Shown: one piece after another, positions 43,615 through 48,742 of the stretch
How the letters are laid out: each line of letters opens with the position of its first letter
Numbering within the stretch: position 1 is the first letter of the stretch
NCBI RefSeq assembly: GCF_036676645.1
Contig: NZ_JAKFCM010000018.1
Coordinates: 5,680-69,679 of the forward strand
Source: Ramlibacter sp.
GTDB taxonomy: Bacteria > Pseudomonadota > Gammaproteobacteria > Burkholderiales > Burkholderiaceae_C
Reading direction: 5' to 3'
Length of the DNA: 64,000 nucleotides
The notes under the pieces: model-generated
The model's input: the letters and a program-made list of their open reading frames with translations, nothing else
What the model was told of the DNA's origin: nothing
The model's database searches: none
Program-made: the position numbers and the translations under genes

Positions 43615-44835
43615 TCAGTCCGCGGGCGCCAGCGGGAGCGTGATCGTGAAGCACGCCCCGCGGCCCGGGCCTTCGCTTTCGGCCCGCACGCTGCCGCCGT
43701 GGAGTTCGGCCATCCCCTTGGTCACTGCCAGTCCGAGGCCGAGGCCGCCCTGGGTGCGAGCGAGATCCTGGGGGGCTTGCGAGAACGGGTTGAACAGGCG
43801 CTCGAGCAGTTGCCCGTCCATGCCGATCCCGGTGTCGGCGACGGAAAGCCTCACCAGCCCGGCGGCCGGGTCGACCCGGGCGCGGATTTCCACGGTGCCC
43901 GGGCCCTGCCGGAACCGGCCCGCATTCGCCAGCAGGTTGCCCAGCATCTGGGCCAGCCGCACCGGATCGCCGTCAACCCACAGGGGTCCGTCGCATCCGT
44001 GCAGCACGAGTCGCTGGCCGTCGGCTTCGAGGCCGCTGCGGTAATCCTCCGCGGTCTGGCGGACGATGGCCGCGAAGTCGCACCGCTCCGCGCGCAGGGT
44101 CAGCTGGCCGCGGCCGATGCGGCTGACGTCCAGGAGGTCATCGACGAGCCGCGTCATGTGGCTGACCTGACGGTCCATGATGTCCCGCAGCCGTGCCAGT
44201 TGCGCATCGCCGGCCGTGGTGCGCTTGAGGATCTCCAGCGCGTTGCGGACCGGCGCCAGCGGATTGCGCAGCTCGTGCGCCAGCACGGCGATGAATTCGT
44301 CCTTGCGGCGGGCCGCTTCGCGCACCACCCTCTGCGCTTCGAGCCGCTCGGTGATGTCCAGCACGGATGCGAGCACGAGGCCACGAGACGTCCCCTGCAG
44401 GGGGTTCAGCCCGACCTGCACCGGAAAGACCGAGCCGTCCTTGCGGCGGCCCTGCAATTCGCGTTCGGCGCCCATGGGACGATGGCAGGGTGCGGCGTGA
44501 TAGCCGTCGCGCAGTCTTGCATGGGCGCGCCGCTCGCTCTCGGGCAACAGGTCATCGATCTCCATGCCCACCAGTTCCTGGCGCGTGTAGCCGAACTGGC
44601 GCTCGGCCTCGCGGTTCACGACCTCGATGCGCCCCTGCGCGTCGACCACGATCATCCCGCAAGGGGAGGCTTCCAGCATTCCGCGCATTCGTTCACTGTC
44701 GTAGAGACCGGCCCCGCACGCGCCGGCCCGGAAGCCCACCCCGATCTCGCAGTCGTCGGGCAGGCTCCACGTCCTCTGGATCCGTTCCATGGTGAGCACG
44801 AGGATCGGCACCTGGGCATCGGTGGGGTGGTCCAT
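43615..44835 (-). CDS. Cytoplasmic PAS-domain sensor histidine kinase
   Basis: 406 aa with no TM segment. PAS region is [24 protein letters not shown]-box is AHELRNPL, and the HATPase G-boxes are present. Confidence 0.85.
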
Positions 44836-44841
44836 GGTGAA

Positions 44842-45495
44842 TCAGAACTGGTACTTCAGGCCGATGGTGAAAAGGGTCTGGTCGCCGCCGCGGCCGACCG
44901 AACCGTCGAGCTGCACCAGGGGCGCGACCAGCCCGCGCAGCCCGGCCTGGAGGGTCGGCCGGGTGTGGCGGGCGCCGAACCACTCGATGTGCGGTGTCAC
45001 GTGCCCGATCTCCCGCTCGTAAGCCACGCCCCAGGTGGGCGCAGCGGGCTCGTGCCGCGGCTTGCTCGCGCCCAGGTTGAAGTGGAAGCTGCCGAGCGGC
45101 TCGGAATTGCAGGTGAGCAGTCCGTTCAGGTAGGCCGCACTGCCATCCCCGGAGGCCCGCGAGGCGCCCGCGACCAGGCCGGCATTGCAGCCGCTGGATG
45201 CGGAAGGCGTGGCCTGCCACTTGGCCTGCACGGCCGTGAGGGTCTGCCTGGCCACGCTGTCCTGCGCGAGCAGGGCGCCGAGCTCGAGCCCGCGGATGGG
45301 AGCGTAGGCAGGCGCCACGTTGAACAGGCGGGCCCCCTCGCTCCCGGCAACCCAGGTCTCGAGCTGGCCGCGCCCGGGCTCGTTGACGTTCGCGTCGTCG
45401 ACGGCGAGTGGGCGGCCGGCGTGGGCTCCCACGGTCGATCCAGCCACGCAGGCAACCAGCAGCAGATGCCGCAACGAAGCGATGCGAGATGGCAT
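44842..45495 (-). CDS. Putative outer-membrane beta-barrel protein (MetA-pathway/transporter-like)
   Basis: Start at MPSRIASLRHLLLVACVAGSTVGAHA (ATG 45495, SD GAGGAA). It has alternating beta-strand patterns and a C-terminal ..GLKYQF aromatic terminus. Confidence 0.5.
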   Translation of the reverse strand: MPSRIASLRHLLLVACVAGSTVGAHAGRPLAVDDANVNEPGRGQLETWVAGSEGARLFNVAPAYAPIRGLELGALLAQDSVARQTLTAVQAKWQATPSASSGCNAGLVAGASRASGDGSAAYLNGLLTCNSEPLGSFHFNLGASKPRHEPAAPTWGVAYEREIGHVTPHIEWFGARHTRPTLQAGLRGLVAPLVQLDGSVGRGGDQTLFTIGLKYQF

Positions 45496-45609
45496 CGGTC
45501 TGTTCCTCGGGGCGAGAAGCGGAGTCACGGCATGGGAGCGGAGCGAACGGGTCGCGAACGACCCGGTAGCCTGCGGGCACTTCGTCGCTCGCCCCCGGCT
45601 TGCGATGGG

Positions 45610-45897
45610 TCACATCAGCTCGTGGATGACGCGCTGCCTGGCCGCCTCCAGGGCTTGCCGGCGGGCCTCGGCGCGCGCTTCATCGTTCTCGGGAACGGTG
45701 GGCGTCTGCAGCGAGGCGGCTTCGCTGGTCACCGGCAGGGTGCCCGCTTTGCGCGCCGCCAGGTAGGCGTCCTGCACCGCCTGGCGGGAAAGCACGCTCT
45801 GGTACGGCGTGCGGTTGGCGAGTTCGTCGCTGGCTTCGTTGGCGAAGGAGGACATGGCGGTGGCGACCAGTAGGCCGAAGACGACTGCTGCTTTCAT
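45610..45897 (-). CDS. Small secreted protein, DUF4148-like
   Basis: 95 aa from ATG 45897 (SD AAGGA). Signal peptide is MKAAVVFGLLVATAMSSFA, and the motif SRQAVQDAYLAARKAG resembles the DUF4148 core. Confidence 0.6.
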   Translation of the reverse strand: MKAAVVFGLLVATAMSSFANEASDELANRTPYQSVLSRQAVQDAYLAARKAGTLPVTSEAASLQTPTVPENDEARAEARRQALEAARQRVIHELM

Positions 45898-45985
45898 GAT
45901 TTCGATCCTTTGGGACAAGTCTTGGGTTGCTGACGGCGGGCGGCTGGCCCGCCGTCCAGGAGCCGATCGGTTCGTGCTCGCATGA

Positions 45986-46012
45986 TGAAACGAGCCGTGC
46001 GCGCGAATGTTC
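45986..46012 (-). promoter_or_regulatory. ECF-type promoter GAACAT-N13-TCGTTTCA upstream of the DUF4148-like gene
   Basis: On the minus strand, GAACAT lies at 46012-46007 and TCGTTTCA at 45993-45986. Sequence and spacing are identical to the motif at 48393-48419 and match the general ECF GAAC-N16-CGT architecture. Confidence 0.6.
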
Positions 46013-47007: not shown

Positions 47008-47558
47008 GAGTGGACCCTCTGGTAGCGTTCGGCGAGCGCTGCGCGCGCACGGGCCAGCCTCGACTTGACCGTCCCATCGTTGATGCCCAAGGCGGCAGAG
47101 ATCTCGCCGTAGCTCAGTCCTTCGACTTCGCGTAACAGGACCACCTCCTTCAGGTCGACTGGCAGCCTGTCCAGCGCGGCCTGCAATGCAGCCATGGCCT
47201 GCTTGGACTGCAGGCGCTTGTCGGGCCCTTCGTCCGGCGACACGACGTCGTAGTCGTCGCCGATCGGCTCGAACCTCACCACTTTCCTGCGCCGCAGCAG
47301 GTCGAAGGCCAGGTTCGATGCGATCCGGTACAGCCAAGCCTGCACATGGCCGCCGGGATCCGACTCGCCCAGTGCCTCCCATCCCTTGAGGAACACGTCC
47401 TGCGCGAGCTCCCGCGCTTCCTCGCGCGAGCCGGTCAGGTTGAACAGGTGGCGGTTCAGTGCGCGTTCGTGCCGGCGGACCAGCTCGCCGTAAGCGGGCG
47501 TGTCGCCCGCACGGGACCTGGCCACCAGCTCGGCGTCGCTGCACTCGTTAACCGACAT
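47004..47558 (-). CDS. ECF (group IV) RNA polymerase sigma-70 factor
   Basis: 184 aa from ATG 47558 (MSVNECSDAELVARSRAGD). Region 2 is AQDVFLKGW..WLYRIA and region 4 is VLLREVEGLSYGEISAALGINDGTVKSRLARAR. Confidence 0.9.
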   Translation of the reverse strand: MSVNECSDAELVARSRAGDTPAYGELVRRHERALNRHLFNLTGSREEARELAQDVFLKGWEALGESDPGGHVQAWLYRIASNLAFDLLRRRKVVRFEPIGDDYDVVSPDEGPDKRLQSKQAMAALQAALDRLPVDLKEVVLLREVEGLSYGEISAALGINDGTVKSRLARARAALAERYQRVHS

Positions 47559-47660
47559 CGGGTTCCCCGCCGCGCCCGCGCGCCGCAGGAAGGAGTGGAT
47601 AGCGTAGGAAGGCGGCGGCGCTCGCATGTTTGATCGGTGTCAAGGAGGCGGCCGCTTCGT

Positions 47661-48308
47661 TCAGTGCGCGTGTTCGACCTTCTTCGCGCCCGGAGCTTCC
47701 ACGGGCGCGCCGGCTCCGGCGTGCGCATCCGCCGTGGCGGCCGCCCCGTGCAGCCGCTCGACGTAGTGCACGTAGTCCACGTAGGCGTTCACGTGCGCGC
47801 GGGCCGCCCGCACATCGTCCGGGTTGTATGCCCGGGTGGCCTGCACGCGGTCGAACTTCTCGTGCAGGCCGTGCTCGGCACCGTCGAAGATCATGCGCGC
47901 GACCGGCTTGAGCTGTCCGCTGGCGATGGACTTGTCGGCGGCGGCGACGGCGGGCTCGATCTGGCCGGCGGGCTTCAGGCCGGTGTAAGGCGCGCCTTCG
48001 CCGGCGCGATGCACCCGCACCAGCGCCTCGAAGAACGACTGGTCGGCCAGGTCCCTCGCGGTTCCACCGTGCTTGCGCACCGCGACCGCACGCTCGAACG
48101 CGTGGCGGATCTCGGCCTCATCCTTTTGCTGGACCCATCCAAGGACCAGGTTGACGTTGCCGCTGTCCAGCGCCTGGCGGGCCTGGCTCACGACCGGGCC
48201 GTCGAGCGTGTCGCAGTGGGCCTGCGCCGCCGTGCCCCAGGTGAGGGCGACGGCGGCGACCATCGCCCCGAAGAACTTGCTGTACGGTGAGCGAATGACG
48301 GAGTTCAT
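47661..48308 (-). CDS. Secreted hypothetical protein (possibly DUF6448-like), predicted mature N-terminus His-Cys
   Basis: 215 aa from ATG 48308 (SD GAGGA). The signal peptide ..VALTWGTAAQA is followed by HCDTLDGPV. The C-terminus is His/Ala-rich and ends VEHAH. DUF assignment is from memory only. Confidence 0.65.
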   Translation of the reverse strand: MNSVIRSPYSKFFGAMVAAVALTWGTAAQAHCDTLDGPVVSQARQALDSGNVNLVLGWVQQKDEAEIRHAFERAVAVRKHGGTARDLADQSFFEALVRVHRAGEGAPYTGLKPAGQIEPAVAAADKSIASGQLKPVARMIFDGAEHGLHEKFDRVQATRAYNPDDVRAARAHVNAYVDYVHYVERLHGAAATADAHAGAGAPVEAPGAKKVEHAH

Positions 48309-48392
48309 GATGATCTGTCCTCGAGTTGCGGAAGGCGCCACGCGGCCTTTTCGAGGTCGTGGCGCGAGCGGATGAAGATCCAGGCTCGCCCG

Positions 48393-48419
48393 TGAAACGA
48401 ACGAGCGCCGCGCATGTTC
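48393..48419 (-). promoter_or_regulatory. ECF-type promoter GAACAT-N13-TCGTTTCA upstream of the secreted His-Cys protein gene
   Basis: On the minus strand, GAACAT lies at 48419-48414 and TCGTTTCA at 48400-48393, about 85 nt upstream of ATG 48308. It has the same two blocks and spacing as 45986-46012. Confidence 0.6.
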
Positions 48420-48742
48420 CGCCGCCCGCTGCGGAATTAGCGGATGTCAAGAAAAGCGAGGCCCGGCGCTGCGCACCCGCAGTGCGGCGGCGCGGAGCCA
48501 CGGGAGCCCAGCCGCGATTGAGTCGGGGATCGCGTCGCGGTAGGTGGTCCTGAGGGCTGGCACGGCGCGCTTCCGCTCTGGTTGATTTGACTTGATACGA
48601 TGTGCGTTATGTAAAATTATAAAGACGCCAACACACTCGTCCTTGTGACAGCAGCCCACTCTTGCGTGCGGCCCCTGGCGGACCCAAGTCTCCTTCTTTA
48701 GAAGTCGCACGACGCACACCTGCGCGCCGCAACACCAGGGCT

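Follow-up and report, generated by a model that had tools for sequence, protein, structure and literature searches.

Genetic organization of the locus

The minus strand of the 64,000-nucleotide Ramlibacter sp. stretch analyzed here (contig NZ_JAKFCM010000018.1, positions 5,680 to 69,679; hereafter, the window) carries a group of seven genes that includes an extracytoplasmic function (ECF) sigma factor gene and two intergenic sites, P1 and P2, resembling ECF promoters. Taken as a whole, the locus is likely to represent, in a Ramlibacter-like betaproteobacterium, a cassette of the ECF281 type whose own sigma factor (g2) reads both P1 and P2. A preliminary interpretation made without database searches (the sequence-only reading) had delimited seven open reading frames (ORFs), designated g1 to g7 in Table 1; all of them are found at the coordinates it gave, and their families were sought here through Pfam and NCBIfam profile searches of the encoded proteins.

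The assignment of g2 as an ECF sigma factor gene is borne out by matches of its 184-aa product to Sigma70_r2 (2.4e-14), Sigma70_r4_2 (6.7e-19) and TIGR02937 (95.5 bits, with a cut-off of 42.9). The protein has only the sigma-2 and sigma-4 regions and falls within the length of about 180-200 aa that define ECF (group 4 sigma-70) factors, and its nearest solved structures are Mycobacterium tuberculosis SigE (5e-31) and CnrH (4cxf, 7e-22). The start codon of g3 overlaps the stop codon of the sigma gene (ATGA), and a single nucleotide separates g3 from g4. Like g5 and g6, g3 yielded no match in a first Pfam/NCBIfam search; its product nevertheless presents an H32-x3-C36-x2-C39 motif and, after a single transmembrane helix, a short tail in the periplasm that closes with C-x5-C; these features are conserved in 11 orthologues. 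The extreme C-terminus (window positions 46558-46640), with the pattern VF(D/A)..P...C-x5-C, is kept in all the orthologues examined, and this periplasmic tail is a candidate redox- or metal-sensing element. The g4 product, which the sequence-only reading had described as an LTXXQ/CpxP-like protein, is better classified as a Metal_resist protein (PF13801; 56.3 bits, with a cut-off of 29.2), the LTXXQ match (0.0019) being below its cut-off. Sequence searches of g3 and g4 against the PDB returned nothing significant. The logic of sigma factor, anti-sigma factor and periplasmic partner that had been proposed for the locus is upheld.

Table 1. Coordinates of the genes and putative regulatory elements of the locus, listed along the minus strand (positions are those of the window)
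Feature	Position	Strand	Basis
Upstream box 1, TTCTTGACATCCGCTAA, 18 nt ahead of the -35 of P1	48437..48453	-	Motif search
P1, GAACAT-N13-TCGTTTCA, predicted promoter of the DUF6448-sigma-anti-sigma-Metal_resist operon	48393..48419	-	Motif search and orthology
g1, secreted DUF6448 protein	47661..48308	-	Pfam, E 1e-57
FNR-type palindrome of canonical form, TTGACACCGATCAA, between g1 and g2 (gap of 102 nt)	47630..47643	.	One of 16 in the genome
-10-like hexamer TACGCT, separated by 23 nt from the FNR box (which is centered at about -41.5)	47601..47606	-	Read from the sequence
g2, ECF sigma factor	47004..47558	-	Pfam, Sigma70_r2 and Sigma70_r4_2
g3, anti-sigma factor, H-x3-C-x2-C and one transmembrane helix	46558..47007	-	Orthologue comparison
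g4, membrane-anchored periplasmic Metal_resist (PF13801) protein	46107..46556	-	Pfam, E 4.7e-15
Weak terminator-like hairpin in the g4-P2 gap	46063..46080	-	2 found against 2.1 expected from shuffles, not above expectation
Upstream box 2, TTCTTGATCTTTGCTTG, 19 nt ahead of the -35 of P2	46031..46047	-	Counterpart TTGATGTTTGCGAG in L050
P2, GAACAT-N13-TCGTTTCA, predicted promoter of g5-g6(-g7)	45986..46012	-	Motif search and conservation of the second copy
g5, 95-aa secreted protein, distantly DUF4148-like	45610..45897	-	PF13663 in two homologues
g6, 12-stranded outer-membrane barrel, PF27733/UCP029691	44842..45495	-	Family match, model and fold match
g7, cytoplasmic PAS histidine kinase	43615..44835	-	Pfam, PAS-HisKA-HATPase

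Two putative ECF-type promoters of identical geometry

The sequence-only reading had pointed out that P1 and P2 share both their blocks and their spacing and occur nowhere else in the window. This is indeed the case when GAACAT-N13-TCGTTTCA is searched with up to two mismatches, the mean number of matches in shuffled sequences being 0.05 and none of 100 shuffles reaching two. The genome-wide search that it had recommended likewise returns only P1 and P2 with up to one mismatch in the 3.8-Mb, 98%-complete genome. We also scanned this genome with a position weight matrix (PWM) built solely from the promoter sites of relatives, in which P1 ranks 7th and P2 14th. The matches scoring above them either fall within coding sequences, among them the antisense strands of atpE and of an acyl-CoA synthetase gene, or do not have the AAC/CGT core, and no other intergenic PWM match with this core appears in the genome. 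In silico, the predicted regulon is thus very small and consists of P1 and P2. A putative hairpin in the 5' untranslated region after P2 (GACGGCGGGC/GCCCGCCGTC) was dropped, as it is not kept in the closest orthologous locus, a metagenomic contig (L050) whose proteins are 72-87% identical to those of the window and which is flanked by the same OEP gene.

Comparative analysis provides the main support for the functionality of these sites. Homologues of the sigma factor (40-52% identity) were identified in eight of the 200 further genera examined in the family, and none was found in the one other genome of the same genus. All eight homologous loci maintain the order sigma gene, anti-sigma-sized gap and PF13801 gene, and all eight carry GGAAC(T/C/A)T-N13-(T/C)CGTT directly upstream of the sigma gene, while a second copy, GGAACAT-N13-TCGTT(G/A)A, directly follows the PF13801 gene in seven of them. 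Conservation of the motif in orthologous loci had been named beforehand as a test of the proposal, and the outcome speaks in its favor; the finding of equal blocks and spacing upstream of every orthologous sigma gene examined also sustains the idea that P1 and P2 are read by the sigma factor of the cluster itself. A second promoter directly after the Metal_resist gene is present as well in a gammaproteobacterial metagenome-assembled genome (L006), in Betaproteobacteria PRO7 (L012) and in L050. Across an alignment of 24 sites the spacing is invariant, with GGAAC(A/T)TT-N11-TTCGTT(G/T)(A/C)A as consensus. The occurrence of same-geometry promoters in the family homologues identifies the two-promoter layout as an ancestral property of the cassette.

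This ancestry bears directly on the notion that P2 might be a non-functional duplicate of the P1 region, carried in with the insertion of g5 and g6. P1 and P2 have in common the upstream box, the -35, the -10 and a downstream GCGAGC, which would be consistent with a segmental copy; yet the cassette ancestrally possessed a second promoter behind its PF13801 gene, as seen in seven of the eight homologues and in L006 and L012, and we consider the duplicate very unlikely. The L050 locus points in the same direction. Its P2 (GAACAT-N13-TCGTTTCA) preserves the blocks while the spacer has strongly diverged, which argues for selection on the blocks; its P1 reads GAACAA-N13-TCGTTTCA, also with a changed spacer, and both upstream boxes are kept.

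A different objection is that P1 and P2 are genuine ECF promoters that are read by another sigma factor of the genome. At least three other ECF paralogues are encoded in it (C53, C113 and C74), and GGAAC-N16-CGT is a generic ECF architecture, with 867 matches to GAAC-N16-CGT in this genome. Such a scenario seems improbable to a high degree, given that the closest paralogue is just 35% identical to g2 and that all g2 orthologues are preceded by the extended motif, which genomes devoid of the sigma factor do not contain. In its strict P2-type form (GGAACATT-N11-TTCGTT), the pattern occurs in one copy each in six of 201 family genomes, all six of them sigma-positive, and in none of 192 sigma-less genomes (hypergeometric estimate, p about 3e-10), a phyletic co-occurrence that is partly trivial and not fully independent because the motifs travel inside the cassette.

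Autoregulation by g2 had been deemed doubtful in the sequence-only reading, an opinion that the comparison with relatives overturns. P1 matches the motif found upstream of all eight orthologous sigma genes, and the order P1, DUF6448, sigma, anti-sigma, PF13801 recurs in three loci: the window, Ramlibacter sp. AN1133 (L004) and L050. P1 is hence the orthologue of the autoregulatory promoter, from which the sigma gene has been separated, here as well as in L004 and L050, by the insertion of the DUF6448 gene, and the DUF6448, sigma, anti-sigma and Metal_resist genes would make up one operon; no terminator-like site was found between g1 and g2. P1 is accordingly predicted to be the autoregulatory promoter of the sigma operon. 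In L053 it is a homologue of g5 (58% identity) that comes first in the operon, with its own box and a weaker ECF-like promoter, and GGAACAT-N13-TCGTTTCT lies between this gene and the sigma gene.

Predicted target genes of P1 and P2

The secreted His-Cys protein postulated for g1 is confirmed as a member of DUF6448 with a mature N-terminus that begins His-Cys-Asp and a His-rich C-terminal tail. Six residues (H31, C32, D33, H100, E104 and H181) are invariant across 30 sequences. The AlphaFold2 (AF2) model of g1 is all-helical (pLDDT 87), and a fold search against the PDB gave no match at E<1 despite the confident helical model. DUF6448 genes recur as targets behind P1 in the window, L004 and L050, and behind P2 in L006 and L012, as befits a mobile cargo gene of this regulon. 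A second DUF6448 paralogue of the same genome (C5:54620-55138, 40% identity) is preceded by GGAAC-N18-CGTCC, the spacing of which differs from that of P1 and P2, and it may therefore belong to the regulon of another ECF sigma factor. Neither this gene nor a paralogue of g5 (C104) carries the P1/P2 motif.

In all seven loci having the second promoter after the PF13801 gene among the family homologues, the gene behind it encodes a secreted His-rich protein of about 155 aa without a Pfam family, whereas g5 and g6 occupy this position in the window. The 155-aa proteins (L042-L049, e.g. L047 4139-4618; in the genome under study, L041 3549-4106) have a His-rich N-terminus and the motif NAGKKW..D..LR..M...ENCKL.P.AD.QLH. 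As for g5, only six homologues were retrieved from 5.8 billion proteins. The family is recurrent and is also represented in L050 and L053. Its earlier description as DUF4148-like survives in part: two of the six homologues carry PF13663 (DUF4148), but g5 itself has no match at E<0.1 in Pfam, including DUF4148, and it is DUF4148-like at most because the domain is present in only these two homologues.

The putative outer-membrane beta-barrel of the sequence-only reading corresponds to g6, which proved to be a member of a newer Pfam family, PF27733 (UCP029691). Its AF2 model is a 12-stranded beta-barrel (pLDDT 89.6), and the closest structures retrieved by Foldseek are porins of the KdgM/NanC type (best, KdgM 4fqe, E 1e-7, TM 0.66/0.83, TMt 0.83). 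In this model g6 shares with KdgM/NanC-type porins the 12-strand outer-membrane barrel fold; by sequence it falls into PF27733/UCP029691. A UCP029691 homologue with 56% identity to g6 (L051 6001-6654) resides in a chemotaxis-like cluster composed of CheW, the barrel, a methyl-accepting chemotaxis protein and CheA, which indicates that the family is not tied to ECF cassettes. A literature search on DUF6448 and UCP029691/PF27733 found nothing.

The PAS kinase gene, g7, stands apart from the rest. It has no counterpart in L050, and its make-up is chimeric: codons 1-45 correspond to a 136-bp segment (window 44702-44837) that is inverted relative to L050, where a 77-aa ORF situated downstream of the OEP gene starts with it, and the product shares 70-76% identity over residues 49-406 with a paralogue at C42:69395-70885. 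The inverted piece marks the local rearrangement that created the chimeric kinase gene. Both its absence from L050 and its chimeric nature identify g7 as a recent, lineage-specific accretion outside the conserved cluster, and the seven-gene cluster originally proposed is better viewed as six conserved genes, even if all seven are present in the window. The gap between g6 and g7 is only 6 nt, which makes their co-transcription from P2 likely.

Probable additional regulatory inputs

The gap between g1 and g2 harbors an FNR-type palindrome followed by a -10-like hexamer. An AAACAT half-match reported here by the sequence-only reading (47631-47626) is real and forms the flank of the palindrome. 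The equivalent in L050 lies at the same place and reads TTGATGCCGGTCAA-N23-TACGAT. Others of the only 16 FNR-type boxes in the genome are found ahead of genes recognized, from their N-terminal translations, as ccoN, usp and cytochrome c genes and a gene for a ccoI/fixI-type ATPase, and together they represent a typical FNR-box regulon. The genome also encodes an FNR orthologue with a C-x2-C-x5-C cluster (CSSCHLKDIC) and an E--SR recognition helix (ETVSR), so that a TTGAT-N4-ATCAA-type box near -41.5 and a Cys-cluster FNR are both in place. The arrangement resembles FNR/Anr class II promoters, in which TTGAY-N4-RTCAA is situated some 41.5 nt upstream of the inferred start and is combined with a TAnnnT -10, and we infer a class II FNR/Anr-dependent sigma-70 promoter for the sigma, anti-sigma and PF13801 genes. 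Its location inside an ECF operon, before the sigma gene, is no described feature of ECF281. The box and -10 suggest an oxygen-dependent basal expression of the cassette.

In addition, P1 and P2 are each preceded by a box of the form TTCTTGAY-N4-GCT(A/T)(A/G), with two matches in the window against 0.13 expected. L003, L004, L005 and L050 have this box too, equally spaced, with 32-33 nt between its first T and the AAC. In other betaproteobacteria (L003, L004, L008 and L013) and on contig C10 of the genome under study, Crp-family regulator genes are neighbors of DUF6448 genes or His-rich-protein genes that bear the box; four of the encoded proteins are mutually 46-53% identical, the L004 gene belongs to the same family by Pfam, and the C10 protein has an E--SR-type helix. 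The box, centered near -58 of both ECF promoters, is probably the site of a Crp/Fnr-family regulator encoded on C10. Other matches to the box in the genome (C24, C71, C53, C104 and C107) were set aside, as they fall in coding or unrelated contexts, and the possibility that the box is itself a sigma-70 or sigma-54 promoter was rejected by eye, there being no -10 or GG/GC elements.

The box opens up the question of whether P1 and P2 might be controlled mainly by its regulator together with the housekeeping sigma factor, the GAAC/CGT blocks being incidental or secondary. In L008 and L013 the box occurs, reversed, before DUF6448 without an ECF motif or a nearby sigma gene; the -35 is degenerate (GCACAT, GCACAA) in L004, L005 and L053; and on C10 (36991-37006; L041 3492-3507) the box, with no ECF motif, is found before the gene homologous to the His-rich P2 target of the relatives. 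The cases of L008 and L013 imply that the box regulator could act without this sigma factor. We regard such control of P1 and P2 as unlikely, nonetheless: inspection of the sequence reveals no sigma-70-like -10 at a suitable distance from the box, and the blocks agree, in sequence and in spacing, with those of the autoregulatory promoter of every sigma orthologue and persist in L050 across the diverged spacer.

Relationship to known systems and proposed mechanism

The defining context of ECF281 is a zinc-finger anti-sigma factor encoded at +1 followed, at +2, by a PF13801 protein ("heavy-metal resistance"); a connection with metal stress is presumed for this group, which was split from ECF20, the one containing CnrH (Casas-Pastor et al. 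2021, NAR, PMC7826278). A core of sigma factor, anti-sigma factor with a ZAS-like motif and PF13801 protein fits this group, to which we tentatively assign the cassette by gene context: the PF13801 gene follows the anti-sigma gene, at +2, in every homologous locus. The cassette departs from ECF281 in the insertion of DUF6448 between the autoregulatory promoter and the sigma gene and in the addition of the FNR-type promoter and the upstream box, and from the cassettes of its relatives in having as P2 cargo a DUF4148-like protein and a UCP029691 barrel instead of the His-rich 155-aa protein. On ECF281, the literature searched yielded only the classification paper and no experimentally studied member.

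The analogy with CnrYXH of Cupriavidus metallidurans (ECF291) drawn by the sequence-only reading holds at the level of logic. Both systems would combine a membrane anti-sigma factor having a minimal periplasmic part with a membrane-anchored metal sensor of the PF13801 type, and both have two sigma-dependent promoters and a very small regulon, g2 itself being related to CnrH. In CnrYXH, however, the anti-sigma factor is of the CnrY type and encoded upstream (-2), whereas here it is ZAS-like and encoded downstream, at +1; the CnrYXH regulon includes a metal efflux operon of the resistance-nodulation-division (RND) type, whereas the targets here are DUF6448, a DUF4148-like protein and a barrel; and g4 has no detectable sequence match to any solved structure. 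Of the kinds described so far, ECF281 is the closest. With the ZAS anti-sigma factors RsrA, ChrR and RslA, g3 shares the N-terminal H-x3-C-x2-C and an upstream Cys, conserved in orthologues, and it differs from them in its membrane anchoring, its periplasmic C-x5-C tail and its only marginal similarity to RsrA (NCBIfam E 0.006, below the cut-off).

Several observations weigh against an ECF281-type cassette with P1 and P2 as its own promoters. Besides the genome-wide PWM ranks of the two sites, the degenerate -35 elements, the boxes that lack an ECF motif and the partial circularity of the phyletic co-occurrence, all of them set out above, the Pfam zf-HC2 model remains silent on g3 at E<0.1. 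The putative zf-HC2 anti-sigma factor of the sequence-only reading does have the conserved H-x3-C-x2-C motif and the transmembrane helix. The presumed inducing signal, moreover, derives solely from the names of the families, the content of His and Cys and the fact that P2 targets in relatives are His-rich. A periplasmic metal or thiol stress is suggested because of the PF13801 family, the His-Cys-Asp N-terminus and His-rich tail of DUF6448, the His-rich P2 targets, the C-x5-C tail of g3 and a DUF4148 operon of Achromobacter that is induced by As(III) and Sb(III) (PMC11719878).

With these provisos, it seems reasonable to postulate the following mechanism. The membrane anti-sigma factor g3, which has a cytoplasmic H-x3-C-x2-C domain, would hold the ECF sigma factor g2, and the membrane-anchored PF13801 protein g4 would serve g3 as a partner, or as a sensor, in the periplasm. 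A signal arising there, in all likelihood stress caused by metals or thiol-reactive agents, would free the sigma factor, which would then transcribe from P1 and P2, whose identical geometry is seen in the sequence. Transcription from P1 would yield DUF6448, sigma, anti-sigma and PF13801 proteins, providing both positive autoregulation and resynthesis of the inhibitor, and transcription from P2 would yield the small DUF4148-like secreted protein and the 12-strand outer-membrane channel, with read-through to the PAS kinase. Two further inputs may be superimposed on this circuit: a sigma-70 promoter of the FNR-type class II kind that immediately precedes the sigma gene, and the Crp/Fnr-family regulator probably encoded on C10, which would act on the TTCTTGAY-N4-GCTAA box near -58 of both promoters.

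A more ambitious proposal, which we put forward tentatively and consider rather doubtful, is that the cassette of the Ramlibacter lineage works as a two-signal integrator, in which P1 and P2 require, or are gated by, the Crp/Fnr-family regulator at the asymmetric TTGAY-N4-GCTAA (about -58), FNR switches on the sigma gene at low oxygen and DUF6448 constitutes a new periplasmic metal-binding family and the main output. If this were true, the cell would respond to metal or thiol stress in the periplasm only when its redox or oxygen state was of a certain kind. Returning to the ECF281-type cassette as such, the locus appears to be a well-defined member of a known but uncharacterized ECF group and a fairly ordinary envelope or metal stress switch, and it overturns nothing that is known about ECF signaling. 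Together with its relatives, it offers a testable definition of ECF281, consisting of the promoter GGAAC(A/T)TT-N11-TTCGTT, the two-promoter layout and a recurrent cargo (DUF6448, the His-rich 155-aa protein, the DUF4148-like protein and the UCP029691 barrel), and it would link four or more functionally uncharacterized proteins with a single pathway of periplasmic stress.

Flanking region

An Rfam search of the whole window gave no match. Beyond upstream box 1, the gap at 48460-49046 (about 590 bp) is gene-poor and becomes sharply AT-rich at about 48580-48640, where a sigma-70-like site is found on the plus strand (48592-48620).

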